Below are positions 1,587-23,960 of a stretch of DNA of 24,000 nucleotides, one piece after another (positions within the stretch are counted from its first letter, which is position 1; each line of letters starts with the position of its first letter). Under the pieces are notes generated by a model. It made no database searches and had not been told where the DNA came from. It saw nothing but the letters and a program-made list of their open reading frames with translations. The stretch is from Changchengzhania lutea (GTDB taxonomy: Bacteria; Bacteroidota; Bacteroidia; Flavobacteriales; Flavobacteriaceae): assembly GCF_006974145.1 (NCBI RefSeq), contig NZ_CP039456.1, positions 2,518,499 to 2,542,498 of the forward strand. Reading direction: 5' to 3'. Position numbers and translations under genes: made by a program.

Positions 1587-1733
1587 TGCGCAGTCTGACG
1601 GTCTTGTATATGGAAAGTTGCGGGTTTGTGTGCGAGGATTTTCCGAAGGAAAATCAGACGTAGCAAACGTGCAACGACCTTTGATTTAGCACAACACCAG
1701 CAATTTTTTATAGGACACTGTGTTGTGGTGCGT
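1587..1733. repeat. Palindromic element PE1 (long imperfect inverted arms plus central hairpin)
   Basis: Arm 1601-1621 (GTCTTGTATATGGAAAGTTGC) pairs with arm 1700-1716 (GCAATTTTTTATAGGAC), with four G:T wobbles on the plus strand and a 4-nt bulge. The central hairpin GATTTTCC-GAA-GGAAAATC is at 1637-1655. The right terminus is TGTGTTGTGGTGCG. The element ends 8 nt before the stop of the antitoxin gene. Confidence 0.55.
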
Positions 1734-1740
1734 TATTTTT

Positions 1741-2025
1741 TCAAGCTGACATTGGATTCACTTGAATTTGTCCTCCGATTGCTTTTAATACTTTCATAAT
1801 TGTCGCAAATTGAGGTTTCGCTCCATCAGATAATGCTTTGTATAAACTCGGTCTGCTTAATCCGGTTTCCTCCGCAATTTTTGTCATTCCGATTGCTTTC
1901 GCAATATGTCCGATTGCATTAATTATATCCGCATTATTTCCCTCTTCCAAAACAGTATTGAGATATTCCGCAATCATTTCTTTGCTGTCTAAATAATCTG
2001 CTATTTCAAATCTTGAAGTTCCCAT
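1741..2025 (-). CDS. Type II antitoxin, HigA-like HTH addiction-module antidote protein
   Basis: 94 aa. It carries the HTH segment MTKIAEETGLSRPSLYKALS characteristic of the addiction-module antidote family that lies downstream of RelE-like killers. It starts 4 nt after the toxin gene. Confidence 0.85.
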   Translation of the reverse strand: MGTSRFEIADYLDSKEMIAEYLNTVLEEGNNADIINAIGHIAKAIGMTKIAEETGLSRPSLYKALSDGAKPQFATIMKVLKAIGGQIQVNPMSA

Positions 2026-2028
2026 TTT

Positions 2029-2328
2029 CTATTTATTTAATTTTTTCCAAATTTCTTTCGCTTTTGCAATGTCTTTTTGCTGAGTAGATTTATCTCCACC
2101 AATAAGCAATACAATTACTTTTCCGTCTTTTTCTTTAAAGTAAACTCTGTAGCCTTTCGCAAAATTTATTCGCATTTCCCGAATTCCGTCGCCAACTGTT
2201 TTACAATCGCCAAAATGTTCGTCAGTTTCTAATTTTTGAATTCTGAACAAAATTTTCGCCTTTGCTTTAAAGTCTTTTAGCTTTCTTAGCCATTTGTCAA
2301 ATTCATTTGTTTTCTCAATAAAGAACAT
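2029..2328 (-). CDS. Type II toxin, RelE/ParE-superfamily addiction-module killer protein
   Basis: 99 aa. The size and sequence pattern (FDKWLRKL ... GIREMRINFAKGYRVYF ... LLIGGDKSTQQKDI) match the killer partner of the HigA-like antidote family. Toxin-first gene order is as in higBA. Confidence 0.85.
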   Translation of the reverse strand: MFFIEKTNEFDKWLRKLKDFKAKAKILFRIQKLETDEHFGDCKTVGDGIREMRINFAKGYRVYFKEKDGKVIVLLIGGDKSTQQKDIAKAKEIWKKLNK

Positions 2329-2333
2329 AAATA

Positions 2334-2353
2334 TTGTATCTACTTGGATACAA
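2334..2353. promoter_or_regulatory. Candidate TA operator palindrome TTGTATC-N6-GATACAA
   Basis: A perfect 7-bp inverted repeat (2334-2340 and 2347-2353) lies immediately upstream of the toxin start codon at 2328. Type II TA operons are usually autoregulated at such palindromes. Confidence 0.4.
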
Positions 2354-2420
2354 AGTTAAGAAAAATATTTGAATAAATTCAGTTCAGATTGAGTTTTTAG
2401 CAGAGTGAGTTTTAAAATGG

Positions 2421-2558
2421 TTGGCAACGTGTCCGTGTATGGTTTGTTGCGTGGTTTGGTAACTAATTTAGTAAATAATTACCGACCAAGAAAATCCGCG
2501 AGGATTTTCGCAAGTAAGTAAAAAGCCAGCAATAAATTATACGGTGTTACCAAACGTT
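2421..2558. repeat. Palindromic element PE2
   Basis: The left terminus is TTGGCAACGTGTCCGTGTATGG and the right terminus is ATTATACGGTGTTACCAAACG. The arms pair imperfectly. The central hairpin GAAAATCC-GCG-AGGATTTTC is at 2490-2509, and an additional hairpin GGTAACTAATTTA/TAAATAATTACC is at 2457-2484. Confidence 0.6.
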
Positions 2559-2580: not shown

Positions 2581-3453
2581 CTATTTGAGCCTGAGTGCTT
2601 CAATAAACCCAGCATCTACCCACATTAGTTTCTTGCCATTGGCATGAAACCGTGTAAAGAAAAAGTATTTCCCATCTGATGTCACACTGCCATAACCATC
2701 TGGGAGTTCTGTATTTATCTTATTCCCTAAATTAATTGCAGCGCCCCATGAACCATCTTCATGACGAAAACTAATATACATATCATTATTACCATATCCG
2801 CCTTCTCCTTCTCGGGCATCCCAGATCAAATAGGATTCATCCGGAGCTACGAATGGGTGGAATTTCCTTGTTCCAATATCAATGTCAAATGTTCTCGGTT
2901 TTTCACGTATGCCGTCTATTAATCGTGAATAACGAATAGTTCCTACTGCAGATGACTTATCATAAAAGGGTGACGAATCAAAATAGTAAGTCCCTTTAAA
3001 TGAAGTCGTAAGGCGCATAATGGGAATAGAATCAAACGGTTCGCCAAGGCTTTTCACCTCTGACCAACCAGAACTGGTTCGCTCTCTATACTCGTTTCCT
3101 ATGTGCATAATCTTACCGTCAGGAGAAATCTCGTCTTTGGGTACCACAAAAGACTCGGTCCATAGATTATCTTTATATTGAAAGGCAATCAACGAATGAT
3201 TTTTTAATTCCTCATCAGATCTGCGGAAATAAATTTCTTCTATATCGGGTGAAAAAGGGGTGTCTAGTTCACTGTGCGCTGTCGAAATAATACGGGGATC
3301 AAAAATTTCAGGAATCGAGCCTGGTGATTTTTGTCCAAAATATGGGCTTACTATAGTTGGTAAATCACCAGCTGTTGTATTCTGTTTTTTTGTATTGCAG
3401 GCATTTAAAAATTGCATCAATGCAAGCATCAAAATAAAATATGCTTTTTTCAT
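2581..3453 (-). CDS. Lipoprotein with TolB/PD40-like beta-propeller repeats (function unknown)
   Basis: 290 aa. The signal peptide has a lipobox (MKKAYFILMLALMQFLNAC). Motifs of the type SPDGK / APDESYL / TSDGKYFFF recur. Confidence 0.6.
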   Translation of the reverse strand: MKKAYFILMLALMQFLNACNTKKQNTTAGDLPTIVSPYFGQKSPGSIPEIFDPRIISTAHSELDTPFSPDIEEIYFRRSDEELKNHSLIAFQYKDNLWTESFVVPKDEISPDGKIMHIGNEYRERTSSGWSEVKSLGEPFDSIPIMRLTTSFKGTYYFDSSPFYDKSSAVGTIRYSRLIDGIREKPRTFDIDIGTRKFHPFVAPDESYLIWDAREGEGGYGNNDMYISFRHEDGSWGAAINLGNKINTELPDGYGSVTSDGKYFFFTRFHANGKKLMWVDAGFIEALRLK

Positions 3454-6297: not shown

Positions 6298-6594
6298 GAT
6301 GTTGGCCTTGAGACTAAATCTTACTTTCAAATTGGTAGTAATTTACTATAAATGATTACAGATCATAGGATTTTCTAGCTATCAGTTACAGAAACAGGAA
6401 AGTGACACCATGAGAGCATCTTTTTATTGAATCAATTTGACCCCAAATAAAACTAAATAAAATGAAAACCCATCATTTAAGTTTTTATAATGTTTGGTAA
6501 CGTTTTTGTATAAGAATAGCCCTTATGTTTGTAGTAGTCAATACGAAGTTTAGTATTTATCTTTCTATTTTAAAGAACTAAAGATAGGACAATT

Positions 6595-7062
6595 ATGGAA
6601 AAGGCATTTACAAAGTTAGATTATAGCGGACAAAATATTTATATTGGATTGGATACGCATTTAAAGAATTGGAAAGCTACCATACGAGTAGGCGATACCT
6701 TTTATAAGTCTTTCTCACAGGACCCAGAAGCTGTTATTTTATCAAAATATTTACATAAACACTTTCCTGGGGGTAATTATTACTCGGCTTATGAGGCTAG
6801 TTTTAGTGGCTTTAAAGCGCATCGTGAATTAACCAAATTAGGTATTTACAATATTGTGGTCAACCCAGCAGACATACCAACGACAGATAAAGAGCGTAAA
6901 CAAAAGGAAGACGCAAGAGATAGTCGAAAAATAGCTGAGCAATTGGCGGCATCAAATTTAGTGGGGATACACATTCCGGATATTGAGATAGAGGGCGATC
7001 GTTCACTACTGAGGTTCCGTAAAACATTGACCAAAGAAATTGCCAGGAACAAAGTTGCGTGA
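6595..7062 (+). pseudogene. IS110-family transposase, N-terminal (DEDD/RuvC-like) fragment only
   Basis: The 155 aa (IYIGLDTHLKNW ... NPADIP ... KTD ..DA) align with the first ~150 aa of the intact 351-aa IS110-family protein at 17529-18584. The C-terminal Transposase_20 part is absent. Confidence 0.8.
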
Positions 7063-7132
7063 TTTAAGCACTAAAGTTAGTAAATAAATCACAGATAGAA
7101 AGTCCGTGAGGGCTTTCGTAAATAGGCGAGAA

Positions 7133-8576
7133 CCCAATGTCATTAAGTTAAGGTTTTTCAAATGCTATCTTTCTGATTTTTAGTTATTTTTGGTTTGGTT
7201 CTAGTTCTATATTTAGCCAAATCTCTTTTAAATGACCGATTAGGTCTTATAGGAACCATGTTTTCCATAAATAGCTGTTTGAGTTCATTCAGCGGTTCTT
7301 CTATTGAGCTTTCGGTAAAAAATAATTCTACAACTCTATTTTTTAAAAAACCATAGGAGAGGTTTTTGTTAATTTTGTAATCTAATCTTCTTTGTTTATT
7401 CTTTTCTGCTATTTCATCTTCTAACTCACTGACAATTAGTCTTTGTATGTTACTAATAAATAGAGCTGCGTAAAAATCTTGTAGAATACTTTGTTTAGAG
7501 TATCCAGAAAAATGTTCTACTTTCAGTTTGTTTTTTAACTCGTCATAAAATGTTTCTACATTCCATCGTTTGTAATAAAGTGATTTAAATATGCTGTTGG
7601 GATAACTTTTAATATCGTACAAAGAGGTCATTAATATTTCAACCTGCCCTTTTGGTAGTTCTACTCTGATAAGCCTTACTTTGATAGGTTTTGATTTATC
7701 TAAACCTTTATCTGATTGTTTTATGTATATACCAGGACTTATGGTTACTATTTGAGACTTTTTTTTGCTTTTTTCAAAATTGATAATAAGTTTGCTAAAG
7801 CCTATCTGCACACGTATTACATAATCCAAATTATTGGTAATGTGATATTTGATAAAATCATATGATGGATATCCTCTATCGTAGAGTATTAAATCACCTT
7901 GCTTACAATGGGTTAAATGTGAGAGTGCCATAGCGCGTTCGCCTTGACTTACTGGCGCTAGTTCACCATCTATAACATAATTGTTTTCCAGATCATATAA
8001 AACAGAACATCTTGCTTGTACGATACTCGTTGTGGTATGGTTTTTTGTTTCCCCAAAATATGACTTTAGTTCTTTTGTTAGTGGTAAAGTAACCCGAGAA
8101 CCATCTACTGCCAACAGTCTAAATCCTTTCCAAGTTTTAATAGCGCACTCATTATCTGTATAAAACTCTTCTATTAAAGTATGTGAAAGATGTTTAAATA
8201 CTATAGGGCTTATTTTCTTTCGCGCTTGTACAAAAGCACTTTTGGTAAACTTTTGGGTTGGACTTATTTTTAAAAAACTTAAAAAATTTTCTAATTCAAG
8301 GGATAAACTTTTACGTAGCATATTCAACATAAGTAGTAAGATAGTAGAAAATTCTTGTTTTCGTTTACGTGTAAAGTCCTTTTCTGAAATTCTAAATTCA
8401 GTTTTTAATGTGTCATTGAATAATTCTGCTTTTAATTTCTTAAAAATTAAAATAGTAGTTTTTTTTCATCTTTATAATTGGTTGATTACCAATTAAATAT
8501 ACGAATAAATTTACAAAAAAACAAATTTAAACTACTGTGAATCAACTAATTAACACCTTAACTTAATGACATTGGG
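7133..8576 (-). mobile_element. IS4-family insertion sequence with perfect 22-bp terminal inverted repeats
   Basis: CCCAATGTCATTAAGTTAAGGT at 7133-7154 has an exact reverse complement at 8555-8576. A single DDE transposase gene lies inside. I see no clean target-site duplication. Confidence 0.85.
7158..8330 (-). CDS. IS4-family DDE transposase
   Basis: 390 aa. It has LLAVDGS (first D), YDRGY (second D region) and the Y-x2-R-x3-E-x6-K signature in YYKRWNVETFYDELK. Confidence 0.9.
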   Translation of the reverse strand: MLNMLRKSLSLELENFLSFLKISPTQKFTKSAFVQARKKISPIVFKHLSHTLIEEFYTDNECAIKTWKGFRLLAVDGSRVTLPLTKELKSYFGETKNHTTTSIVQARCSVLYDLENNYVIDGELAPVSQGERAMALSHLTHCKQGDLILYDRGYPSYDFIKYHITNNLDYVIRVQIGFSKLIINFEKSKKKSQIVTISPGIYIKQSDKGLDKSKPIKVRLIRVELPKGQVEILMTSLYDIKSYPNSIFKSLYYKRWNVETFYDELKNKLKVEHFSGYSKQSILQDFYAALFISNIQRLIVSELEDEIAEKNKQRRLDYKINKNLSYGFLKNRVVELFFTESSIEEPLNELKQLFMENMVPIRPNRSFKRDLAKYRTRTKPKITKNQKDSI

Positions 8577-8793
8577 CTAGAACTAGCAATTAATTTTATA
8601 CGGTGTTGAACGAATCCTCCCTACCGGTCGGAAGCCCATCTCCGAGTCTTCGAAGGGGAGTTCTTTTGTAAATATAATAGATTTATTAATTTGTATCTAA
8701 ATTTTAAAATGAATATTATGTTTAAAAAAAAGTAAAACCATTGCTGAACGCGCTTTTGATGAAGTTGCAGGTTTCAGTACCCTTCAAGACAAG

Positions 8794-9609
8794 TTGGAGC
8801 AAAGTTTTTCCATTAATGGCAAAGCCAAAAGCACCTTAAACAATTACCTCAGGTGTTTGGCTCACCTTGCTTTGCATTATAAGCAGAGTCCCGAAACACT
8901 CTCTGTAGAAAGCATTGAATCTTACCTTTATTACTGCCAAAAACTTCACAAAACGCCTTCTGAAAGTTTCTTTAAACACACCATTTTCGGTCTTAGAGCC
9001 GCCTATAAGGTTATGGGTATGGCGGGTAAACGTGTGGCGTTACCTCAAATTAAACGCGACTTAAAACTGCCGATAGTTTTGAGCCAAGATGAAGTGAAAC
9101 GTCTTTTAAAAGCGCCCAAGCATCTAAAACACCGTTTAATTATTGGCATGCTTTACGGCTGCGGACTTCGTAGCTACGAGTTGTGTGACTTAAAACTGTC
9201 AGACATCGATTTTGATCGGAAAACCGTATTTATTCCCAAGAAAAAAGGGAAGATTGATCGTTATGTACCTTTAAGCAAGTTCTTAATCAGAGGGCTGAAT
9301 ACGTACATCAAAACTGAAAATCCTCAAATCTATCTTTTTAACAGTCAGGTCACCAAACAAGGAAAGCCTCAAGGGCTTACCACCAATGGCATCCGCTGGG
9401 TAATTAAAGAAAGCCGTAGTAAAATAGGCAGTTCCAAAAAGATAACCGCCCACACCTTTGCCACACATTTGTTGGAATACGGTGTAAACCTAGTGAGTTT
9501 AAAAGAACTTTTGGGACATGCGCATATTGAAATGACTTTAACCTATCTGCATGTGGCCAATCTACCCAGTGGTTCGAAATTTTCTCCACTGGACAAACTC
9601 TACGATTAA
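8794..9609 (+). CDS. Tyrosine recombinase/integrase accompanying the IS91-family transposase (5' end apparently frameshifted)
   Basis: The catalytic region has R (GCGLRSYE), H-x-x-A (AHTFATHLL) and LLGHAHIEMTLTYLHV (Y). The reading frame stays open upstream to 8713, but the only ATG (8718) is out of frame across an A8 run (see findings). Confidence 0.8.
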   Translation: MEQSFSINGKAKSTLNNYLRCLAHLALHYKQSPETLSVESIESYLYYCQKLHKTPSESFFKHTIFGLRAAYKVMGMAGKRVALPQIKRDLKLPIVLSQDEVKRLLKAPKHLKHRLIIGMLYGCGLRSYELCDLKLSDIDFDRKTVFIPKKKGKIDRYVPLSKFLIRGLNTYIKTENPQIYLFNSQVTKQGKPQGLTTNGIRWVIKESRSKIGSSKKITAHTFATHLLEYGVNLVSLKELLGHAHIEMTLTYLHVANLPSGSKFSPLDKLYD

Positions 9610-10748
9610 TGCGTTCCCGACATACGGTCGCTGACATTTTAGAGATGGAACAGCTACAGCTCAGCAACTTGAGCTTGACCTCTTGGCATTACCGAGCTTT
9701 GCAGGCCATCAGGAGGTGCCGCACCAAAGCGATGGGCGGTCATATTGATAAATGCGATTGTTGCCACGCATTGCACATCAGTTACAACAGTTGCAGGAAC
9801 AGACATTGCCCAACCTGCCAAGGACATAAACGTGAAGAGTGGATTCGGGCACGAGAAGGCGAACTTTTAAATGTTCCTTATTTTCATTTGGTGTTTACCA
9901 TTCCAAGTGAGTTTAACAGTTATGCTTTGAGCCACGGAAAAATAGTGTACGGTAGTTTGTTTAGGGCAGCATGGCAGACTTTACAGCAATTTGGCAACAA
10001 TCCCAAACACTTGGGTGGAAGCATGGGGATGATTGCAGTGCTGCATACTTGGGGTCAGAATATGAGTTTGCACCCGCACTTGCACTGCATTGTGCCAGGG
10101 GGTGGTTTGAGTCAATCTGGAAGATGGAAAAAGGCAAAGAACAATGGTAACTACTTGTTCAATGTAAAATCCATGAGCCAAGTGTTTCGAGCAAAATATA
10201 TAGCAGAACTCAGAAAGAATGACTTAAAAATTCCTCAGAAAACATACAATGATCTGTTCGGTAAAAAATGGGTGGTTTATGCCAAACAACCTTTTAGAAG
10301 TCCAAAATATGTGATAGAATACTTGGGTAGATATACCCACAAAATAGCGATTAGCAACCATCGGATTAGGGATGTGGATTGTAAAAATAAGAAGGTCACT
10401 TTTACTGCCAAGGATTACCGTCGTGCTGGTAAGAAAACCAATTTAACAGTATCAAGTGCGGAGTTTATTAGGCGCTTTGCCATGCATATTTTACCCAAAG
10501 GATTTACCCGCATACGGCATTATGGCATTTTAAGCAGCCCTTGGAAAAAGGAGAAACTACCAAAACTACAAGCTGAACTGGCTACAGTAAAAATAGAATG
10601 TATTAAAACAGACAACCCCGTTTTGCACCGCCAATGTCCTGTTTGTAAAAAGGGAAGACTACATACCATTTTATTGTTTAATGAACGTGGACCACCCGAA
10701 AATTGGCGCGTTTTACTAAAAGACAAAAAATTGAATATGAGTAACTAA
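9609..10748 (+). CDS. IS91-family HUH (Y2) rolling-circle transposase
   Basis: 379 aa. It has an N-terminal Cys-rich zinc-binding region (CDCCH ... CRNRHCPTCQ), an HUH motif in LHPHLHCIVPGGG and a Y2 region YLGRYTHKIAISN. Its start overlaps the recombinase stop. Confidence 0.9.
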   Translation: MRSRHTVADILEMEQLQLSNLSLTSWHYRALQAIRRCRTKAMGGHIDKCDCCHALHISYNSCRNRHCPTCQGHKREEWIRAREGELLNVPYFHLVFTIPSEFNSYALSHGKIVYGSLFRAAWQTLQQFGNNPKHLGGSMGMIAVLHTWGQNMSLHPHLHCIVPGGGLSQSGRWKKAKNNGNYLFNVKSMSQVFRAKYIAELRKNDLKIPQKTYNDLFGKKWVVYAKQPFRSPKYVIEYLGRYTHKIAISNHRIRDVDCKNKKVTFTAKDYRRAGKKTNLTVSSAEFIRRFAMHILPKGFTRIRHYGILSSPWKKEKLPKLQAELATVKIECIKTDNPVLHRQCPVCKKGRLHTILLFNERGPPENWRVLLKDKKLNMSN

Positions 10749-10974
10749 AAATCATTCTGCAAAAGCGGCCTGGCTTTGCTATGCCTTAACTTTAGAATGA
10801 ATTGATAAAAAACAGAAATTTTAAGTTAAAAACTACTAAAAACCCACCAAGAATGTAAAAAAAAGTGATCTCTATACGCTTTGATCGCATCAATCGCATC
10901 GCAATCTCCAATCAACCTTCTATAAACGCATCGTTTTACCCATAGCACGGCAAATCAACCGGATTCGTCAACAC

Positions 10975-11026
10975 AGAATTCAGCTCTGGCCTATCGGCGA
11001 GCCGAATTCTTAGTTATTGGCAACAG
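10975..11026. repeat. PE-like element (PE5): 12-bp-stem hairpin plus TTGGCAACAG terminus abutting a stop codon
   Basis: AGAATTCAGCTC (10975-10986) pairs with GAGCCGAATTCT (10999-11010) with one A:C mismatch. TTGGCAACAG at 11017-11026 lies directly next to the stop codon (11027-11029) of the 290-aa ORF. Confidence 0.4.
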
Positions 11027-12182: not shown

Positions 12183-12207
12183 TTTTTAGTTAAGATGTTT
12201 TTAATTG

Positions 12208-12279
12208 TTGCCAACGTTAGTATAACTAGTCATAGCACCCTACGGGATGCTACGATAGTTATACTAACGTTGTGGGCAA
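12208..12279. repeat. 72-bp attC-like hairpin (PE7): TTGCCAACGTTAGTATAACTA ... TAGTTATACTAACGTTGTGGGCAA
   Basis: A perfect 16-bp outer stem (12213-12228 with 12256-12271) encloses an inner stem carrying two single-nt bulges and one A:C mismatch, then the loop CCC-TAC-GGG. Both termini contain AACGTT. Confidence 0.7.
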
Positions 12280-14525: not shown

Positions 14526-14530
14526 ATCGA

Positions 14531-16371
14531 GTAGACGGCTCTCCTGACTAAAGGAGAGTGCGCCTCTCACACCACCGTACGTACGGGTCTCGTATACGGC
14601 GGTTCGATAATGAAACTTATCGTTTGTAGTATTCAATTAAACTAACATAACCTTTCCTCTTTAAACGTTTTATGGTAATGGTAGTCCGTAGTATAGGACT
14701 TTGAGCGACTGCCCATCCTCCCATTCTTGTACGACTCCACGCATAGGCATGGTCTTGGTCAATTCCTAGACGAATCAGGTTTTTCCGTTTTCGTTCTGGT
14801 TTCTTCCAATGATGCCATATGCAATACCGTAATCGGTTTCTTAACCACTCTTCCAGCTTTTTAAGTTTCGCTTGAATGGATGCCGGTCTAAAGTAATTTA
14901 TCCAACCACGTATTAGCAGATTGATACGGTCGATACGTTCTTCAAAACTTGCGGGTATCGTCTTTTTGGTAAGGTATTTAAGCTTTGCTTTGAATTCCTT
15001 CCATTTGGACGGTTTTACCACCAGTTGATATTTACCTTTTTCTCCTTTCTTGTAGGTCGGTACAAAACCAAACCCTAATACTTGGAAACTTAAAGGCTTA
15101 CGTATACCACTTTTCTCCCTGTTTATTGGCAGTTGAAGTTTGTCTTTCAGGAACTTGTAGATACTGTTACCTACTCGTTTTGCAGACATTTTACTCTTAA
15201 CATAAATACTGAAGTCATCAGCGTATCTTACATAGCGATGTCCTCGTTGCTCTAATTCTTTATCCAACTCATTGAGCAGGATATTAGAGAGCAATGGACT
15301 TAAAGGCGAACCTTGTGGAACACCTTTTTTCCGTTTGTGTAATTTACCATTGATTAGTATCGGGGCTTTAAGAAAACAGCGCAGTAGCTTCATCGTCGGT
15401 TTACATTTTACCTTTTTGTAAATCAATTCTAAAAGAATATAGTGTTCTACTTCATCAAAGAAACTCTTTAAATCTATATCTACTATATCCTTAGAGCCTG
15501 AATTGATATTTTCTAGGCTCTGTGCAATTGCCTGATGGGCGTTGCGCTGTGGTCTGAATCCATAACTATGCTGTTGAAAGTCTGGCTCGAATATAGGTTG
15601 CAAAACTTGATGTAATGCTTGTTGAAACACCCTGTCAACAACCGTGGGAATACCGAGTAATCGTTTCTTCCCGTTGCTTTTTGGTATTTCAACGCCCAAT
15701 ATTGGAGACACCTGATACATCTCTCTTTCTATTTGCCAGATATATCGGTTACCTTGGGTTTGCAATATAGATTTGAGTTCAGTGATATGAACTCTGTCTA
15801 TGCCTGCTGAACCCTTGTTACGATATACCCGCTCATAGGCATAGTTTAGATTCTTTTTACTTGTTAATTGTTTAATCATTAATACTAAATTGATTTGCTG
15901 TCTCGCTTAATCAAAGGCTATTATTTTACTGGAAAGCTATCCGTAACGTAAAACAACTCCTGAGTTTATTAAAGACCATTATCGTTCTGTCCTTCACCAA
16001 CCTATCAGGCGGTCGGTTACTATGACTTCTGCTGACTTCTCTACTTTACCAACTCGTGGTTATAGAGACCTCCCCAGGTAATGGCATCTTCTTTCACTCA
16101 ATCGCTGCCGTATCTACATAAATACACTTTTGGTAATCTTTTGGGCGTTACAATGATGTGCTTGCTTACCCGTGCATAAATGCCTCGTATACGGTTTCTG
16201 TTCGTCAGTACCGAGCTTTGTAGTCCTGCTTCCTTTAGTCCTAGTTTCGCAACTAGCAACCTTGCAGCTTACTAATGGTTCAAGGCCGTACCCCTGCCCA
16301 TAAGGGACTTGCACCCTCTAGATTAATTATTTACCTTTCGGTAAATTTAAAGATGCCCATGCTGGGCACAC
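14531..16371 (-). mobile_element. Group II intron I2 (class C-like; related to I3/I4)
   Basis: The 5' end is GTGTGCCCAGCATGGGCATC (16371 downward). Domain V is CCGCCGTATACGAGACCCGTACGTACGGTGG. The terminal hairpin CTCTCC...GGAGAG covaries with that of I3/I4. The 3' end is ...CCGTCTAC (14531). Boundaries are +/-2 nt. Confidence 0.85.
14617..15879 (-). CDS. Group II intron reverse transcriptase/maturase (no endonuclease domain)
   Basis: 420 aa with the motifs RLLGIPTVVDRVFQ, GVPQGSPLSPLLSN, YADDFSIY and RGWINYF. Confidence 0.95.
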   Translation of the reverse strand: MIKQLTSKKNLNYAYERVYRNKGSAGIDRVHITELKSILQTQGNRYIWQIEREMYQVSPILGVEIPKSNGKKRLLGIPTVVDRVFQQALHQVLQPIFEPDFQQHSYGFRPQRNAHQAIAQSLENINSGSKDIVDIDLKSFFDEVEHYILLELIYKKVKCKPTMKLLRCFLKAPILINGKLHKRKKGVPQGSPLSPLLSNILLNELDKELEQRGHRYVRYADDFSIYVKSKMSAKRVGNSIYKFLKDKLQLPINREKSGIRKPLSFQVLGFGFVPTYKKGEKGKYQLVVKPSKWKEFKAKLKYLTKKTIPASFEERIDRINLLIRGWINYFRPASIQAKLKKLEEWLRNRLRYCIWHHWKKPERKRKNLIRLGIDQDHAYAWSRTRMGGWAVAQSPILRTTITIKRLKRKGYVSLIEYYKR

Positions 16372-16568
16372 ACAATGGCTATAGTTAATACGGGTTTTGG
16401 CGCTTAACCCAAAGTTTGGTGTATTTTTATAAAGTCCGCCAAATCTTTTGATTTGGCTTTAGAACAAAAAAGATAAAACAAAATAAAAAGTTTTGGCTAA
16501 TTGCTTAATCGGAAATTAATTACTTTTAATTCCCGTACTAACCATAGCCGAGACGTTGCCAGTAATGC
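16372..16568. repeat. Palindromic element PE8 (about 190-bp type)
   Basis: The 18-nt arms GGCTATAGTTAATACGGG (16377-16394) and CCCGTACTAACCATAGCC (16532-16549) give 16 Watson-Crick pairs plus 2 A:C. The central hairpin GCCAAATC-TTTT-GATTTGGC is at 16438-16457. The right terminus is ACGTTGCCAGTAATGC. Its left terminus is interrupted by introns I2 and I1. Confidence 0.7.
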
Positions 16569-17189: not shown

Positions 17190-17235
17190 AGCACTACTGG
17201 CAACACCGTGTCCTATGAAAAGCACTAGCCTAGTT

Positions 17236-18660
17236 CTTCAAAGTTAATATTTATTTTTTTAATTATCTCATAATGATGATTCTGTGGTGTTGGAATGTTG
17301 ATAATTCCGATAGGATTATCAATATTTCAATCGCCTTTAAATAACTTGCTCCGCATCCTATATGTGATCCATTGTAAAACTTGATGGTCACCAGCATCTG
17401 TATGATTATAAGTTATAATAAACCTGGCCACTTGCTATAAATGTGTGATACCTATTAATCTGGTTCACCTACGGTGTTCTGTGATACAGGTTTTGCTACT
17501 TCTTTGTGAGCTTGGTTATTGATTTATATTATTCTATAACACCTATGGTGTAGGGTGTTTCTGTTTTTATGACCGCTAAGGTTCTACTCAATAATTTACG
17601 TGCTATTTTCACTATGATGCTCTTTGCGTTCTTCCCTACGTGTTTTCTATAATAGGCTTGCATCACAGGATCTGTACGTATGGCTTGCCATGAGGCTTCT
17701 ATAAAATAACTCCGCATTAATCGGTGTGCTCGCATGGTAATGCCTGTGTGCCTTTGGTTGTCTCCACTTTGGTGAATTCCTGGTGCTAGACCTACATAGC
17801 CCGCCAAACGTTTTATGCTATTAAAGCGGCGCAAATCTCCCAACTCGCAGATGATACCACAAGCGACAATACCTCCTATTCCTGGAATACTGCGTAAAAG
17901 ATAATAGTCCTTTTTATAATGCTTGCGACAATAAGCCCGAAGTTTGGTAGACACATCGCGTAATTCCTTATCTATAAATCTGAAGTTTCGCATCCTGCTA
18001 TCCAAAGTCTCTCGAGCTGTGGGATGACTAAAAGTCAAGGCGTCTAGCCAATCTCTAAATTTATGACTCCAATGATCATTATCAAAGGCCTCTGGAATGC
18101 TTACGCCAAAATACAATAACTGCATTTTTATGTAACTCTTCACCCGTCTAAAATCCTTGACCAAGTCGTTGCGTCTTCTAAAAAGACTACGTAGTTGCTC
18201 ACGCTCTACTTCTGGAATAGTAATACTCTCCAATCTGCCATCCTTTAGTTCTCTGGCTATTAATTGGGCATCGATCTTATCGGTCTTGGTAAAGCGTTCT
18301 TTTCCCTTGCGATGGATATCTGCTGGATTTACAACCAGTGAGCGCCAGCCATATCCTTCAAAATTGCGATGGGCGTAATAACCACAGCAGCCTGCTTCGT
18401 AAGCTGTTGAAACTTCATGACCCTTAAAATGGGTAGTGACATACGTTTTTAATAACTCTGGCTTTGGTGGCATGGTAAAGGACTTTCCTGAAAATAAATC
18501 CGTAGCACAGTGAATTTTCCAACTACGTTTGTGAATGTCAATACCAATGTATAACTTTGGTTGGGCAGTAATTTGAGTGTTCATATCTTTTAAGTTTTTG
18601 TGAATTATAAAGATACTTGACTTACTGCTTTTTCATGGATGCTATAATTAATGGCTAGTT
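17236..18660 (-). mobile_element. IS110-family insertion sequence (IS1111-like layout: ~70-nt 5' and ~290-nt 3' non-coding ends)
   Basis: CTAGTT is present at both junctions (17230-17235 and 18655-18660). Removing 1425 bp restores a continuous PE arm. There are no terminal inverted repeats, as expected for this family. The boundary could equally be 17230-18654. Confidence 0.7.
17529..18584 (-). CDS. IS110-family DEDD transposase/recombinase
   Basis: 351 aa. The N-terminal RuvC-like DEDD domain (LYIGIDIHKRSW ... E ... NPADI ... KTDKIDA) is followed by a C-terminal Transposase_20 region (IPGIGGIVACGIICELGDLRRF ... GLAPGIHQSG). Confidence 0.95.
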   Translation of the reverse strand: MNTQITAQPKLYIGIDIHKRSWKIHCATDLFSGKSFTMPPKPELLKTYVTTHFKGHEVSTAYEAGCCGYYAHRNFEGYGWRSLVVNPADIHRKGKERFTKTDKIDAQLIARELKDGRLESITIPEVEREQLRSLFRRRNDLVKDFRRVKSYIKMQLLYFGVSIPEAFDNDHWSHKFRDWLDALTFSHPTARETLDSRMRNFRFIDKELRDVSTKLRAYCRKHYKKDYYLLRSIPGIGGIVACGIICELGDLRRFNSIKRLAGYVGLAPGIHQSGDNQRHTGITMRAHRLMRSYFIEASWQAIRTDPVMQAYYRKHVGKNAKSIIVKIARKLLSRTLAVIKTETPYTIGVIE

Positions 18661-18770
18661 TTAGGTTAATTAAGAAAATCCTCTCGGATTTTCTATCTGG
18701 TGTTTATTTGCTAAATTAGGTACTTAAACACGCCACTAATCATATACATAAACGTTAGCTTTAATTTAAA

Positions 18771-19133: not shown

Positions 19134-19270
19134 CTGAATAGTGTTTTGTAAAAAAAATATAAAAAGATATTGCGGTACCCATCAAAAAAATATGGAATAA
19201 AAGAAACATATAATCTGACTTTAAACCAAAAAAATAGATTATGATTAGAGCAAAAACTAAAGCTAATTGA

Positions 19271-21120
19271 GTAGACGGGTGACGACTTAAAAGTCGTCAC
19301 TGCGCCTCTCACACCACCGTACGTACGGGTCTCGTATACGGCGGTTCACCAAATTGAAGTTTGCGTATTATTAATGTAATCTAACAAAGGTTTATACCCT
19401 TTTCGTTTAAGTCTAGAGACTGTAATAGTAGTCTTTAGAATAGGACTTTGAGCAACTGCCCAGCCTCCCATTCTTGTTCTACTCCAAGCATAGGCTTGTC
19501 CGATTTCTATACCTAATTGAATTAGGTTTTTACGTTTCCGTTCTAGTTTCTTCCAATCGTGCCAAATACAATAGCGCAACCGATTTCTTAGCCACTCATC
19601 TAGCTTTTTACTTTTTGCATAGATGTTGGTTAAGCGGTAATTGTTCATCCAGCCTCGGCAGACTTGATTAAGTCGTTCGAGTCGTTCTAACAACGACATG
19701 GGTTTGGTTTTCTTGGTTATACTTTTTAGGTTACGTTTAAACTTTGCCCAACTTTTATTGGCTACCACTAGTACATATTGTCCTTTTACACCCTTTTTAT
19801 AGATGGGTACAAAACCATGCCCGAGTAACTCAAAGTTTACAGGTCTGCGGATGCCACTTTTGGCTTTGTTTATAGGTAATTTAAGTTTATCTTTTAAGAA
19901 GACAAACAGTCTATTTCCTATTTGTTTAGCCTCGCTTTTGCTTTTGGCGTAAACGCTAAAATCATCAGCGTAGCGAACATAACGCAAGCCCATGCTTTTC
20001 ATTTCTTTGTCCAAAACATCTAACATAATATTAGATAATAAGGGACTAATTGGACTGCCTTGCGGGATGCCTTTTCTGCGCTTTTGGAGTTTTCCATCTA
20101 TTAATATGGGAACTCTAAGCCATTTTCGGATTAATCGCAAAGTGGTCGGACATTTTACCTTGTGGTAAATAAGTTGCAGTAAGATACAGTGGTCTACTTG
20201 GTCAAAGAATCCTTCTAAATCAATATCTACAATATCTTGATAACCAGAATTGATATACGTTTGAGCTTGTAATACTGCTTTTTGGATGTTCTTTTGTGGA
20301 CGGAAACCGTAACTAACGGGTTCAAAATCATATTCAAAATGAACCATTAATTGTTGACTTACCGCTTTTTGAAGCCACCTATCGACTACAGTTGGTATTC
20401 CTAATAGTCGGGTTTTACCCTGTCCTTTTGGAATGGTTACTCCTAATATTGAATTTGGATTATAGCTGTTTGTGCGAATAGTCGATAGTATAGTCGAACG
20501 GTTTTCTAATATATAAGCGGAAAGCTCCGTTGTTTTCATACCATCTACACCGCTCGCGCCTTTATTGCGCTCCACTTGTCGTGTTGCTTTAAAAAGGTTT
20601 GTTGCTGATAATACGTTTTCAATCATAGGTTTAATAATTCGTGTACTCCTGTTGGTTTAAAACTAGGCTAGCTAGGCATCCTAATCGAATTCCAACGTAA
20701 TTTAATGTTCTGTCCTTCCCTACTTGTGAGACCATCTGAGGTATTGCCTCAACTCGTTTCCCGTAGGTACTATGACCTCTGCTGACTTCTCCAAATAACC
20801 AACTCGTAGTTTTGGAGACCTCCCCAGGTAATGACATCTTCTTTCTCTCAATCACTGCCGTATCTACATATTTACCCTTTTGGTGTTCGTTGGGCGTTAC
20901 AATGATGTGCTTGCTTACCCAAGTAAATATGCCTCTGTATACGATTTCTGTTCGTCAGTACCGAGTTTTGTAGTTCCGCTTCCTTCAGATAGAACCTCAC
21001 GGTTTTCACCCTTGCGACTTACTAATGCTTCAAGACGTTACTCCTGTACATAAGGGACTTGCACCCTCTAGATTAATTATTTACCTTTCCGTAAATAAAA
21101 GATGCCCATGCTGGGCACAC
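19271..21120 (-). mobile_element. Group II intron I3 (class C-like), identical copy of I4
   Basis: 1850 bp. The 5' end is GTGTGCCCAGCATGGGCATC (21120 downward). Domain V is CCGCCGTATACGAGACCCGTACGTACGGTGG. The terminal hairpin is GTGACGAC-TTTTAA-GTCGTCAC, and the 3' end is ...CCGTCTAC (19271). Confidence 0.85.
19346..20626 (-). CDS. Group II intron reverse transcriptase/maturase (no endonuclease domain)
   Basis: 426 aa with the motifs RLLGIPTVVDRWLQ, GIPQGSPISPLLSN, YADDFSVY and RGWMNNY. Confidence 0.95.
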   Translation of the reverse strand: MIENVLSATNLFKATRQVERNKGASGVDGMKTTELSAYILENRSTILSTIRTNSYNPNSILGVTIPKGQGKTRLLGIPTVVDRWLQKAVSQQLMVHFEYDFEPVSYGFRPQKNIQKAVLQAQTYINSGYQDIVDIDLEGFFDQVDHCILLQLIYHKVKCPTTLRLIRKWLRVPILIDGKLQKRRKGIPQGSPISPLLSNIMLDVLDKEMKSMGLRYVRYADDFSVYAKSKSEAKQIGNRLFVFLKDKLKLPINKAKSGIRRPVNFELLGHGFVPIYKKGVKGQYVLVVANKSWAKFKRNLKSITKKTKPMSLLERLERLNQVCRGWMNNYRLTNIYAKSKKLDEWLRNRLRYCIWHDWKKLERKRKNLIQLGIEIGQAYAWSRTRMGGWAVAQSPILKTTITVSRLKRKGYKPLLDYINNTQTSIW

Positions 21121-21256
21121 ACAACGTATAACAGCAAATAGCGGGTATTGTACTGAAAATTGTCATTTCAGAGATCAAGTAACAAACCACAAAACCGACA
21201 AGAACGTGTCCTTACTCCACGCCACTTGCGTTATACAAGACCGTTGCCATTAATAC
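21121..21256. repeat. Palindromic element PE11 (about 135 bp)
   Basis: Arm GTATAACAGCAAATAGCGGG (21126-21145) pairs with arm CCACGCCACTTGCGTTATAC (21217-21236), with 2 A:C mismatches and 2 single-nt bulges. The central hairpin CTGAAA-N7-TTTCAG is at 21153-21171. The right terminus is CCGTTGCCATTAATAC. The left terminus GCTAATTGA (19262-19270) is separated from it by intron I3. Confidence 0.6.
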
Positions 21257-21289
21257 CAGAAAAACTTTGCGGATTGAAAAAAATGTACT

Positions 21290-21314
21290 AACTTTGTAAT
21301 TACAAAACAAAGTT
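21290..21314. promoter_or_regulatory. Candidate mazEF operator: nested palindromes AACTTTGT-N9-ACAAAGTT and TTGTAATTACAA
   Basis: These perfect inverted repeats end at the nucleotide before the antitoxin ATG (21315). Confidence 0.4.
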
Positions 21315-21560
21315 ATGGAAACAGCAATTATAAAAATTGGAAATTCAAAAGGTCTGCGTTTAAGCAAGACTATTTTGGAAAAATACAACATAAAAGACAA
21401 AGTCGAAATGATTTTAGAAAAAGGACAAATAATCCTAAAGCCAATTGATAGCCCAAGAAAAAATTGGGGAAAAGCGTTTGAAGAGATGCGTGAAAATAAT
21501 GATGACCGATTATTATTCAATGATGTCTTTGAGGACGAAAATTTTGAGGAATGGAATTAG
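21315..21560 (+). CDS. mazE: AbrB/MazE/SpoVT-family antitoxin
   Basis: 81 aa. The N-terminal swapped-hairpin motif (IIKIGNSKGLRLSKTILEKYNI) is followed by an acidic C-terminus. It overlaps the toxin gene by 10 nt. Confidence 0.8.
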   Translation: METAIIKIGNSKGLRLSKTILEKYNIKDKVEMILEKGQIILKPIDSPRKNWGKAFEEMRENNDDRLLFNDVFEDENFEEWN

Positions 21561-21874
21561 AACAGTATTCAATCGTACTCGTAAATCTTGACCCAACAAT
21601 AGGTAGCGAAATTAAAAAAACAAGACCTTGTGTAATTGTTTCGCCAAACGAAATTAATAAGTTTTTAAGAACAATCGTAGTTGCACCAATGACAACGAAC
21701 TTGAAAAATTATCCAACCAGAATTAAAGTAAAGCATAACGGAAAAAAAGGAATGATTGCAATCGACCAAATTCGGACAATTGACAAATCTCGAATAATAA
21801 AAAAGTTTGACCAATTATCGAAATCTGAAATACAGAAATGCAAAGATATTATCAGAGAAACTTTTGTGGATTAA
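21551..21874 (+). CDS. mazF: MazF/PemK-family endoribonuclease toxin
   Basis: 107 aa. VLVNLDPTIGSEIKKTRPCVIVSP ... VVAPMTT ... IDQIRTIDKSR is the typical PemK/MazF pattern. Confidence 0.9.
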   Translation: MELEQYSIVLVNLDPTIGSEIKKTRPCVIVSPNEINKFLRTIVVAPMTTNLKNYPTRIKVKHNGKKGMIAIDQIRTIDKSRIIKKFDQLSKSEIQKCKDIIRETFVD

Positions 21875-21919
21875 AACTGACTTTTGAACAAAAAAACGAA
21901 AAGTACTAATGCCAATTGA

Positions 21920-23769
21920 GTAGACGGGTGACGACTTAAAAGTCGTCACTGCGCCTCTCACACCACCGTACGTACGGGTCTCGTATACGGCGGTTCACCA
22001 AATTGAAGTTTGCGTATTATTAATGTAATCTAACAAAGGTTTATACCCTTTTCGTTTAAGTCTAGAGACTGTAATAGTAGTCTTTAGAATAGGACTTTGA
22101 GCAACTGCCCAGCCTCCCATTCTTGTTCTACTCCAAGCATAGGCTTGTCCGATTTCTATACCTAATTGAATTAGGTTTTTACGTTTCCGTTCTAGTTTCT
22201 TCCAATCGTGCCAAATACAATAGCGCAACCGATTTCTTAGCCACTCATCTAGCTTTTTACTTTTTGCATAGATGTTGGTTAAGCGGTAATTGTTCATCCA
22301 GCCTCGGCAGACTTGATTAAGTCGTTCGAGTCGTTCTAACAACGACATGGGTTTGGTTTTCTTGGTTATACTTTTTAGGTTACGTTTAAACTTTGCCCAA
22401 CTTTTATTGGCTACCACTAGTACATATTGTCCTTTTACACCCTTTTTATAGATGGGTACAAAACCATGCCCGAGTAACTCAAAGTTTACAGGTCTGCGGA
22501 TGCCACTTTTGGCTTTGTTTATAGGTAATTTAAGTTTATCTTTTAAGAAGACAAACAGTCTATTTCCTATTTGTTTAGCCTCGCTTTTGCTTTTGGCGTA
22601 AACGCTAAAATCATCAGCGTAGCGAACATAACGCAAGCCCATGCTTTTCATTTCTTTGTCCAAAACATCTAACATAATATTAGATAATAAGGGACTAATT
22701 GGACTGCCTTGCGGGATGCCTTTTCTGCGCTTTTGGAGTTTTCCATCTATTAATATGGGAACTCTAAGCCATTTTCGGATTAATCGCAAAGTGGTCGGAC
22801 ATTTTACCTTGTGGTAAATAAGTTGCAGTAAGATACAGTGGTCTACTTGGTCAAAGAATCCTTCTAAATCAATATCTACAATATCTTGATAACCAGAATT
22901 GATATACGTTTGAGCTTGTAATACTGCTTTTTGGATGTTCTTTTGTGGACGGAAACCGTAACTAACGGGTTCAAAATCATATTCAAAATGAACCATTAAT
23001 TGTTGACTTACCGCTTTTTGAAGCCACCTATCGACTACAGTTGGTATTCCTAATAGTCGGGTTTTACCCTGTCCTTTTGGAATGGTTACTCCTAATATTG
23101 AATTTGGATTATAGCTGTTTGTGCGAATAGTCGATAGTATAGTCGAACGGTTTTCTAATATATAAGCGGAAAGCTCCGTTGTTTTCATACCATCTACACC
23201 GCTCGCGCCTTTATTGCGCTCCACTTGTCGTGTTGCTTTAAAAAGGTTTGTTGCTGATAATACGTTTTCAATCATAGGTTTAATAATTCGTGTACTCCTG
23301 TTGGTTTAAAACTAGGCTAGCTAGGCATCCTAATCGAATTCCAACGTAATTTAATGTTCTGTCCTTCCCTACTTGTGAGACCATCTGAGGTATTGCCTCA
23401 ACTCGTTTCCCGTAGGTACTATGACCTCTGCTGACTTCTCCAAATAACCAACTCGTAGTTTTGGAGACCTCCCCAGGTAATGACATCTTCTTTCTCTCAA
23501 TCACTGCCGTATCTACATATTTACCCTTTTGGTGTTCGTTGGGCGTTACAATGATGTGCTTGCTTACCCAAGTAAATATGCCTCTGTATACGATTTCTGT
23601 TCGTCAGTACCGAGTTTTGTAGTTCCGCTTCCTTCAGATAGAACCTCACGGTTTTCACCCTTGCGACTTACTAATGCTTCAAGACGTTACTCCTGTACAT
23701 AAGGGACTTGCACCCTCTAGATTAATTATTTACCTTTCCGTAAATAAAAGATGCCCATGCTGGGCACAC
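21920..23769 (-). mobile_element. Group II intron I4, identical copy of I3
   Basis: It has the same 1850-bp sequence as 19271-21120 at a constant offset of 2649 bp, with identical encoded protein. The flanks differ, so these are two separate insertions. Confidence 0.85.
21995..23275 (-). CDS. Group II intron reverse transcriptase/maturase (no endonuclease domain)
   Basis: The 426 aa are identical to the product of 19346-20626. Confidence 0.95.
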   Translation of the reverse strand: MIENVLSATNLFKATRQVERNKGASGVDGMKTTELSAYILENRSTILSTIRTNSYNPNSILGVTIPKGQGKTRLLGIPTVVDRWLQKAVSQQLMVHFEYDFEPVSYGFRPQKNIQKAVLQAQTYINSGYQDIVDIDLEGFFDQVDHCILLQLIYHKVKCPTTLRLIRKWLRVPILIDGKLQKRRKGIPQGSPISPLLSNIMLDVLDKEMKSMGLRYVRYADDFSVYAKSKSEAKQIGNRLFVFLKDKLKLPINKAKSGIRRPVNFELLGHGFVPIYKKGVKGQYVLVVANKSWAKFKRNLKSITKKTKPMSLLERLERLNQVCRGWMNNYRLTNIYAKSKKLDEWLRNRLRYCIWHDWKKLERKRKNLIQLGIEIGQAYAWSRTRMGGWAVAQSPILKTTITVSRLKRKGYKPLLDYINNTQTSIW

Positions 23770-23960
23770 ACACTGTATATAGCAAATAGGGCATTCGGTG
23801 GTTTGTGAAACTTTGGTAGTTATTTGAAACACCGCCAAATCGTTGATTTGGCTTTTAAGAATGAGTAATTTAAAAACAAAATAAACGATTTGGCTCAGTG
23901 CAAACTTGAAAGTTTATCGCTTTCTACTGCCCTACTTGCCATATACTAACAGTTAGCCAC
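23770..23960. repeat. Palindromic element PE12 (about 190-bp type, homologous to PE8)
   Basis: The arms TATATAGCAAATAGGGCA (23776-23793) and TGCCCTACTTGCCATATA (23928-23945) give 16 Watson-Crick pairs plus 2 A:C, at the same relative positions as in PE8. The central hairpin GCCAAATC-GTT-GATTTGGC is at 23834-23852. The right terminus is CTAACAGTTAGCCAC. The left terminus GCCAATTGA (21911-21919) is separated from it by intron I4. Confidence 0.7.

Follow-up and report, generated by a model that had tools for sequence, protein, structure and literature searches.

Which strand of a repeated palindrome is the one that functions, and what fixes that choice? This question is raised by a stretch of 24,000 nucleotides (nt) from Changchengzhania lutea (contig NZ_CP039456.1, positions 2,518,499 to 2,542,498), referred to here as the window, which has a G+C content of approximately 33%, is dense in mobile elements, and carries a series of AT-rich imperfect palindromes labelled PE1, PE2, and so forth. 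The original prediction held that the mismatches in their arms become G:T wobbles on the strand complementary to the adjacent coding strand, that this strand flips together with gene orientation, and that the pattern parallels the folded bottom strand of integron attC sites. The parallel appears to extend to identity. With a probability of roughly 85%, the palindromes are themselves recombination sites of attC type, belonging to an integron-like array of gene cassettes in a Flavobacteriaceae-like genome, the folded bottom strand being the functional form, a conclusion drawn from AAC/GTT boxes, a covarying stem, cassette boundaries between G and TT (written G/TT, with a slash marking the boundary here and below), and the occurrence of the same cassettes in other arrays.

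Identification and Architecture of the Site Family

Plain inverted-repeat scans miss these sites because their arms lie 75-125 nt apart, and such scans returned only the inner palindromes at 23834-23894, 12212-12272, and 4441-4498. Comparison of the window with itself matched 18643-18771, in reverse complement, to 2411-2541 (72.5% over 131 nt) and to 7053-7133, indicating one oriented family of elements whose direction is reversed from one half of the window to the other. A covariance model seeded with 8 complete sites (7 R-box and 16 L-box pairs), together with half-site hidden Markov models searched with nhmmer (left and right halves), which added the sites interrupted by introns and insertion sequences (ISs), placed six foldable palindromes (PE1, PE2, PE8, PE10, PE11, and PE12) of approximately 130-195 nt in this family. 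The common layout is R''(nnnnAAC), a 3-nt spacer, L''(16 nt), a variable region of approximately 60-125 nt, L'(16 nt), a 5-6-nt spacer, and R'(GTTnnnn). In arrays on metagenome contigs, a palindrome with the pattern nnnnAAC-ACC-GTGTATAATTAATGGC ... GCCACTAATCATACAC-AAAAC-GTTnnnn comes after each small gene. Each site forms part of the cassette 5' of it, so that the polarity of a site is the polarity of that cassette; the strand of cassette sense is called the top strand and its complement the bottom strand.

Sites to the left of 12.2 kb have minus polarity, and those to the right have plus polarity. On the minus strand, PE1, which belongs to a HigBA cassette, spans 1594..1728 (R'' 1722-1728, L'' 1700-1718, L' 1606-1621, R' 1594-1600; covariance score 39.6 bits), and PE2 spans 2422..2552 (R'' 2546-2552, L'' 2529-2542, L' 2435-2450, R' 2422-2428), scoring 104.8 bits on the minus strand versus 15.7 on the plus strand. 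On the plus strand, PE8, recognized by its nhmmer halves, spans 16374..16561 (L'' 16377-16394, L' 16532-16549, R' 16555-16561), with the rest of its R'' box at 12650-12658, left of two introns. PE10, whose R'' box is lost, spans 18641..18760 (L'' 18643-18655, L' 18732-18747, R' 18754-18760; covariance match 18643-18744, 79.4 bits on the plus strand versus 14.1 on the minus strand). PE11 spans 21123..21249 (L'' 21126-21143, L' 21220-21236, R' 21243-21249; match 21112-21249, 25.8 bits on the plus strand), and PE12, the site of a MazEF cassette, likewise found by nhmmer halves, spans 23772..23958 (L'' 23775-23792, L' 23929-23946, R' 23952-23958). The window sites carry the AAC and GTT boxes, with the exception of the R' box of PE1, which reads GTC. 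The large variable region of PE12 includes the palindrome at 23834-23894; this palindrome was considered as PE12 itself and rejected once the long-range arms had been found. The inner palindromes of PE8 and PE12 are parts of the variable regions, with G:A mismatches in their arms and wobbles on neither strand.

The wider sample consisted of 85 related loci, among which those fetched through the intron proteins derive from Formosa, Polaribacter, Gelidibacter, Aequorivita, Saprospiraceae, and other Bacteroidota; the intron-fetched loci yielded 185 matches to the covariance model and 146 distinct aligned sites, to which the counts below refer unless stated otherwise. The best matches lay on the strand opposite the intron in all 140 cases (80 related loci). 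A second, independent set comprised 31 sites from arrays located through a tyrosine recombinase, described below, and not through an intron; in such recombinase-anchored arrays, 35 of 35 matches were co-oriented with the array and none lay upstream of the recombinase.

The stem of these sites is real, as 80.8% of cells hold pairs versus 63% in shuffles, the covariation score of 0.399 falls to 0.109 after shuffling and to 0.086 or less if the partner is displaced by 1-3 columns, and 15 of the 16 L-stem pairs show changes on both sides. The letters A-A-C of R'' are each present in 121-142 sites and G-T-T of R' in 131-141. The central spacer is unpaired, with 3 nt on the R''-L'' side versus 5-6 nt on the L'-R' side, and consists mostly of A and C on the top strand. 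Extrahelical bases are absent from the L stem, with L'' and L' both 16 nt long and insert columns filled in 1/146 sites (three columns) or 10/146 sites (one column).

Part of the variable region is also conserved across cassettes and genera, consisting of the hairpin GAAAATCCnnnnGGATTTTC and the motif (T)TTRCTAAATTAG. The hairpin recurs at 2488-2509, 7096-7117, and 18672-18693 in the window and in many related sites, and a host-factor or terminator role is possible for it.

Strand Asymmetry of the L Stem

The mismatches of the arms are strongly one-sided. Taken together, the six foldable window sites have 13 A:C positions and no G:T position in their L stems on the cassette-sense strand (binomial p = 2.4e-4, to be read with the caveat that the sites are homologous and not independent), which bears out the original prediction that the two kinds of mismatch would not balance. 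PE8, PE10, and PE12 each carry exactly two A:C positions, 5 nt apart and at homologous places; this spacing had been proposed for PE8 and PE12, and PE10 now joins them. PE1 and PE2 each carry three A:C positions on their top strand, which are read as G:T on the plus strand. PE1, to which four G:T positions had been assigned, has three wobbles (G12/G13/G17 of the left arm), accompanied by a 3-nt bulge and one other mismatch. PE2, which had been described as mixed, is so only through one T:G pair in its R box, the L stem itself being uniform. PE3 and PE4 had been thought to follow the same trend and do not belong to the family. PE3 (approximately 3476-3525) gave no significant covariance or hidden Markov match on the expected strand and is a short AT hairpin beside the cassette start GTTGCCAAC, while PE4 (4439-4500), also without a significant match, is a perfect 13-bp repeat across the stop codon of a response-regulator gene; each contains one G:T pair in an unrelated short hairpin, and both were left out of the counts.

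The same two positions recur throughout the wider sample, where two L-stem positions 5 nt apart hold A in L'' opposite C in L' in 124/146 and 143/146 sites, and a third position is A:C in 47/146. Over all 23 modelled pairs of the R and L boxes, the top strand shows 425 A:C against 68 G:T pairs. Removal of the two fixed positions leaves 158 A:C against 68 G:T for the pairs as a whole, and 71 against 14 when the L stem is taken by itself. Expressed per site, there are 3.31 G:T pairs on the bottom strand and 1.03 on the top strand, and the spacers are A/C-rich on the top and G/T-rich on the bottom strand.

A pattern of this kind would be produced if purifying selection acted on the hairpin of the bottom strand, tolerating G:T and not A:C. 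It might also be a mutational footprint, in which C-to-T deamination on the strand that is more often single-stranded turns G:C into G:T, and the direction of the bias fits such a process, the bottom strand carrying G in its 5' arm and T in its 3' arm, as does its presence at the non-fixed positions (71 versus 14). Random decay would be expected to scatter, yet the two main positions stay fixed across 146 diverged sites from several Bacteroidota families (in 85% and 98% of them) while their neighbours covary freely, and repair of these positions, which would stabilise both strands by 6-7.5 kcal/mol, is absent. Deamination as the general cause is therefore considered quite improbable, and it may still account in part for the additional wobbles scattered elsewhere.

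The polarity of the asymmetry follows the cassette and the array, not each gene. Gene orientation and site polarity can part ways, as in the related locus L082 (15876-17764), where three minus-strand genes occupy one cassette between plus-oriented attC sites.

Folding of the Two Strands

Folding energies are minimum free energies (MFEs) calculated with DNA parameters, unless RNA parameters are named. The bottom strand is the more stable in 135 of the 146 sites, by a mean of -2.77 kcal/mol (p = 8e-23), and in 28 of the 31 sites of the independent set, by -2.69 kcal/mol. In the window, the strand complementary to the cassette is favoured in 5/6 sites with DNA parameters and 6/6 with RNA parameters. 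The expectation that the better-folding strand is the complement of the coding strand is accordingly upheld in its direction and amended in its reference, since the better-folding strand tracks cassette polarity and not gene orientation as such.

The individual values (top and bottom strand) are -19.2 and -23.0 kcal/mol for PE1, -15.4 and -18.2 for PE2, -25.9 and -31.0 for PE8, and -35.1 and -38.2 for PE12. In PE1, PE2, and PE10, the long stem is part of the MFE structure on the bottom strand only, and across the aligned sites the median Watson-Crick pair probability of the L stem is 0.82 on the bottom versus 0.35 on the top strand. The bottom strand folds the full hairpin more readily because the fixed positions are A:C on the top and G:T on the bottom strand and because of the composition of the spacers; when the recurrent A:C positions are repaired to G:C, a bias of -1.31 kcal/mol remains.

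Cassette Boundaries and Mobility

Evidence that the sites recombine comes from the cassettes between them. The MazF protein of the window was found exactly on six metagenome contigs (L001-L006) with differing neighbours. The MazEF block that the window has in common with L001 and L002 begins immediately past ..ACGTT/ (window 21241/21242), the cassette start being placed at 21245, and ends in the downstream palindrome at 21915, exactly where the fourth intron of the window begins. Approximately 10 nt following GTT complement, in reverse, the R'' box belonging to the palindrome that comes next downstream and not that of the preceding one, as in the pairs of cassette start and own R'' in L001 (GTTGGGTGCA/TGCACCCAAC and GTTACCACAC/GTGTGGTAAC), and both cassettes flanking the centre of the window complement their own distal R'' boxes (11018-11030 and 12649-12658). 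Cassette starts that complement their own R'' box, combined with a G/TT boundary, are the signature of integron cassettes.

The MazEF cassette (21315-21874) is 93-95% identical to its counterparts in L001-L006, yet the attC bodies differ considerably between contigs, the L stem and variable region being different and the R'' box and first L'' bases common. Sequence comparison thus hints that exchange may take place within attC sites and not at G/TT alone.

These boundaries bear on the simplest alternative, that the palindromes are ordinary intergenic repeats, resembling repetitive extragenic palindromes or bacterial interspersed mosaic elements (REP/BIME) or miniature inverted-repeat transposable elements (MITEs), or else bidirectional terminators oriented for transcriptional reasons. 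They are indeed intergenic, palindromic, and repeated, and some inner hairpins are terminator-like. Ordinary repeats would not explain the same cassette with different neighbours and exact GTT boundaries, an R'' box that complements the cassette start, or sites arrayed directly downstream of a tyrosine recombinase. Additionally, the sites are AT-rich, 130-195 nt long, and arrayed, as opposed to short, GC-rich, scattered hairpins; neither target-site duplications nor MITE-like ends were seen, the sites match no Rfam family at either the gathering or the E-value threshold, and terminator-like matches are not enriched in 1-12.5 kb (9 versus 6.9 expected). This alternative is regarded as very improbable, and the attC-type reading is retained.

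Group II Introns at the Sites

Four group II introns, all on the minus strand within the plus-oriented block, provide a second type of evidence. Intron 1 (12659..14525; intron-encoded protein (IEP) 12751-14004; Rfam RF00029 and RF01999; TIGR04416, 415 bits) and intron 2 (14526..16373; IEP 14617-15879; Rfam RF02001 and RF01998; Pfam RVT_1 and GIIM) lie head to tail with 0 nt between them. They belong to different lineages (Rfam D1D4-2 versus D1D4-3; IEPs of 417 and 420 amino acids (aa)), and, as both lie in the same R'' box of PE8, this target was hit twice; the 5' end of intron 2 is directly 3' of the bottom-strand hairpin of PE8. Intron 3 (19266..21122; IEP 19346-20626; Rfam; TIGR04416, 349.7 bits) lies in R'' of PE11 and intron 4 (21915..23771; IEP 21995-23275; Rfam) in R'' of PE12, the two being 99.7% identical. 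In the related loci, an attC site abuts the intron's 5' end in 22 of 43 cases. The IEPs contain only the Pfam domains RVT_1 and GIIM and no endonuclease domain.

Group IIC-attC introns are known to insert in attC sites, on the bottom strand and antisense to the cassettes (PMC3001079). The introns described here resemble them in being antisense to the cassettes, in lying 3' of a stem-loop, and in encoding a protein with only reverse transcriptase and maturase domains; the likeness described here is one of position and domains. They differ from the published examples in their Bacteroidota hosts and variant attC target, and in the tandem of two introns of differing lineages at one site (12659-16373). 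As judged from the sequences, the bottom-strand hairpin is a genuine DNA target in vivo, with group II introns lying right 3' of it, and the introns are independent evidence that this hairpin forms in the cell.

The original prediction had left a choice between a function as single-stranded DNA and one as antisense RNA. That introns lie directly 3' of the bottom-strand hairpin, both within the window and at 22 of the 43 related loci, favours single-stranded DNA, and antisense RNA is the less favoured of the two. Selection at the RNA level in a broader sense could involve either an antisense G:U hairpin or, more plausibly, a sense polycistronic mRNA that avoids a stable attC hairpin causing termination or a ribosome block, hence the A:C mismatches of the top strand; the polarity of recombination would then be of secondary concern. 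Such selection would agree with the larger bias obtained with RNA parameters (2-13 kcal/mol, all six window sites), with sense-direction read-through of cassettes across the sites, and with the terminator-like appearance of the conserved hairpin in many variable regions. It leaves unexplained why DNA-targeting introns use the bottom-strand hairpin and why G/TT cassette junctions show DNA recombination at the sites; two A:C positions invariant in place suit recognition by a protein better than a general weakening of a hairpin; and no antisense promoter signal was conspicuous, promoter-like matches falling below shuffle expectation. RNA-level selection is thus an unlikely cause of the asymmetry, although it can coexist with a function of the bottom strand as single-stranded DNA.

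Candidate Recombinase and Proposed Mechanism

In related genomes, the arrays begin approximately 70 nt past the stop codon of a 388-aa tyrosine recombinase located downstream of rpsO-pnp; the recombinase is co-oriented with the cassettes and is followed by up to 15 or more co-oriented cassettes. It keeps the catalytic residues and can be aligned with VchIntIA (2a3v) in two segments (residues 104-274 = 10-180 and 299-369 = 248-318). It has an extra N-terminal region of approximately 95 aa, aligns contiguously with archaeal XerA, and scores 207 bits against TIGR02249, for which the cut-off is 265 bits. Synteny suggests that this recombinase acts on the sites. After its stop codon, a conserved junction ..TAATAAAnGTnAnTATATAACnnGTT/ is found in 6 genomes, with an inverted repeat ATATCC..GGGATAT before it and the first cassette after it (L081, L082, L084, and L085 at approximately 11150-11235, L016 at 4405-4480 on the minus strand, and L039 at 14215-14290 on the minus strand). 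This junction, which is absent from the window, is a candidate attI.

By analogy with integrons, the folded bottom strand would serve as the single-stranded DNA substrate of a tyrosine recombinase cutting at the GTT of R', and the asymmetry of the stem would keep cassette insertion in one orientation. A more far-reaching proposition, tentative and judged to fall somewhat short of an even chance, is that these arrays represent an unrecognised integron lineage widespread in Flavobacteriia and other Bacteroidota, in which the recombinase never gained, or has lost, the additional domain specific to IntI, extrahelical bases are lacking, and strand choice is made through two invariant bottom-strand G:T wobbles and spacers composed of G and T only. 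The thymines of the wobbles may act as latent flipped-out bases in such a lineage, and the window would be a natural case in which the code has been lost, with cassettes running both ways from a perfectly symmetric site.

Several observations weigh against the attC-type reading and the mechanism proposed with it. The window contains no array-associated recombinase, the only candidates being a recombinase borne by an IS91-family element and a Bacteroidetes-type integrase. The 388-aa recombinase lacks the approximately 43 aa of the IntI-specific additional domain, and the sites lack the extrahelical bases of canonical attC, showing instead the two position-invariant A:C/G:T pairs 5 nt apart; because of these two differences, the single-stranded DNA mechanism is carried over from integrons by analogy and should be read as provisional. 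Dinucleotide shuffles of the 146 sites retain a bias of -0.87 kcal/mol, so that about one-third of the energy bias is compositional, and PE10, at +0.6 kcal/mol with DNA parameters, has a slightly more stable top strand. Regarding the sampling, the 146 sites are kin by descent and the counts are not independent events; the covariance model was also seeded with sites carrying the A:C positions, and with matches at 25-135 bits it is unlikely to have missed sites without them.

The Polarity Switch and Its Symmetric Centre

Two arrays of opposite polarity had been proposed to meet at 12.2-12.7 kb, and the two blocks do meet there, diverging from 12212-12272. The junction site (12205..12279, without a strand) consists of perfect 17-bp arms (12212-12228 and 12256-12272), each of which reads L'-spacer-R' outward, giving GTT/GGCAACA on the minus strand and GTT/GTGGGCA on the plus strand. 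It contains 0 A:C positions, has equal 4-nt spacers, and scores almost alike on either strand (14.9 versus 14.4 bits). The HigBA and MazEF cassettes, which are opposed in the window, are co-oriented in L002, indicating that one block is inverted relative to the other. No other bipolar array was found among the 185 covariance model matches in related loci, and according to Nivina et al., cassettes in the wrong orientation have never been seen in either mobile or sedentary integrons (PMC5027507). That a site devoid of asymmetry could be used on either strand and seed cassettes in both directions is plausible but unproven, and is proposed with modest confidence.

Three other origins of the switch were considered and set aside. 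Inversion by recombination between inverted IS or intron copies is not supported, as no long inverted repeats flank the switch and the four introns share one orientation; a fold-back assembly artefact at the centre would have mirror-image flanks, and the flanks are different cassettes; and an ordinary site-specific inversion between two attC sites should, on paper, give two normal sites and not a symmetric one. A centre composed of two back-to-back copies of the attI-like junction was considered as well; the alignment shows only moderate similarity and does not distinguish attI-like from L'-R'-like.

Interrupted Sites, Insertion Sequences, and Other Genes of the Window

Several further sites survive in part, most of them next to mobile elements. 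An isolated L'-R' half-site, GCTATTCTTATAC-AAAAAC-GTTACCA (6495..6521, minus strand; nhmmer right half 6519-6496, E = 0.002), marks the start of the next minus-strand cassette. Part of an attC variable region lies at 7054..7132 (minus strand; covariance match 7054-7138, 34.6 bits on the minus strand). An IS element carrying a Pfam DDE_Tnp_1 transposase (7133..8576, minus strand; transposase 7158-8330) is inserted in this variable region, with terminal inverted repeats of 25 bp (8552-8576 versus 7157-7133, 96% identical when inverted), and separates it from its R''-L'' half GTTCAAC-ACC-GTATAAAATTAATTGC (8577..8611, minus strand; nhmmer left half 8579-8608, E = 9e-7). The L' arm of the same site is truncated by a 155-aa N-terminal fragment of an IS110-family element (6520-7053). 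The complete IS110-family element, classified by NCBIfam as an 'RNA-guided transposase' (17237..18640, minus strand, boundaries approximate; transposase 17529-18584; Pfam; NF033542, 218 bits), lies between two non-matching attC halves, next to the R''-L'' half of the ParE-cassette attC, TGGCAAC-ACC-GTGTCCTATGAAAAGC (17198..17223, plus strand; nhmmer). Both IS110 insertions go with missing attC parts. As in the IS1111-attC subgroup of IS110, a complete element and a fragment of another are found inside attC sites; unlike in that subgroup, the insertion points are in or next to the L stem and attC parts have been lost.

An IS91-family element occupies 8612..11017 (plus strand, boundaries approximate; Pfam), encoding a Y2 transposase (9609-10748) and a 271-aa tyrosine recombinase (8794-9609). 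It adjoins the R'' box (..TGTTGCCA) of the cassette ending near 11018-11030, and the same end of an IS91-family element is found at the identical R'' position (..CAA/) in L002 (approximately 2620-2950 and 3730-3987) and L004 (approximately 1030-1100), a recurrence that suggests a putative attC-targeting relative of IS91. The G+C content of the element is 39-43% versus approximately 30% in its surroundings, and its recombinase is XerA/IntI-like and also lacks the additional domain. The four introns, an IS110 element, and this IS91-like element, being inserted in the sites, are independent markers of polarity.

The remaining genes include a HigB/HigA-like pair (1741-2328) and further minus-strand genes up to approximately 12.2 kb, with ParE and MazEF modules on the plus strand. 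A region of approximately 4 kb (2581-6201) holds four minus-strand genes, encoding a PD40-repeat protein, an esterase, a LytTR response regulator, and a histidine kinase. No attC site of the family lies within 2581-6201, though such sites are present on both sides, and the region may be either a single very large cassette or one whose internal sites have decayed, of which PE3 may be a remnant. Beyond PE1, with its GTC box, approximately 290 nt of non-coding DNA is followed by the converging gene of a Bacteroidetes-type tyrosine integrase with an Arm-DNA-bind_5 domain (9-1307). This end of the array may be its edge or that of a larger integrative element.

Comparison with Known Integrons

Literature searches retrieved no description of this flavobacterial system, which is not proof of absence. 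The survey with IntegronFinder 2.0 reported only In0 elements and one Salinibacter integron in Bacteroidetes (PMC9024848), and judging from this survey, the arrays appear to escape the standard integron-finding model. If the interpretation is confirmed, large cassette reservoirs in marine Bacteroidota have apparently gone unreported by standard integron-finding software.

The platform resembles that of sedentary chromosomal integrons in having a recombinase at a fixed chromosomal place, a junction ending in GTT, and co-oriented cassettes. It is unlike them in that the recombinase is co-oriented with the cassettes and lacks the additional domain, and the window itself is without such a gene and holds a bipolar array. 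The sites share with integron attC the R'' and R' boxes with AAC and GTT, the covarying L stem, the unpaired spacer, the variable terminal structure, the G/TT boundary, and the mobility of cassettes. Their sequence, part of the variable region included, is much more conserved than that of canonical attC.

Canonical attC sites are recombined as the folded bottom strand approximately 10^3-fold better than as the top strand, a choice ascribed to the extrahelical bases, the unpaired central spacer, and the variable terminal structure (PMC8946536). Across 263 attC sites belonging to mobile integrons, the bottom strand is 2.12 kcal/mol more stable and has 1.24 versus 0.39 G:T pairs (Nivina 2016, PMC5027507), compared with 2.8 kcal/mol and 3.3 versus 1.0 G:T pairs in the present family. 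The principle of an asymmetry in G:T pairs and folding energy is therefore already known for canonical attC and is not new (PMC5027507). What looks new is that extrahelical bases are absent, that the recombinase lacks the additional domain, and that opposed blocks meet at a perfectly symmetric site. The fixed A:C/G:T pairs lie on the arm that carries the extrahelical bases in canonical sites. Swapping or repairing two base pairs offers design rules for strand selectivity, for which the bipolar array provides a natural test case.

In classical integrons, the recombinase reads a folded single strand, and strand choice is put down mainly to extrahelical bases that an integrase-specific domain grips. 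The system described here follows the same overall logic without those bases or that domain, and its G:T/A:C asymmetry, of secondary rank in classical sites, is sharper and fixed in position. If confirmed, it would constitute a second means, and a simpler one, by which a DNA hairpin can encode strand polarity, and a possible intermediate between Xer-type recombinases and integron integrases.

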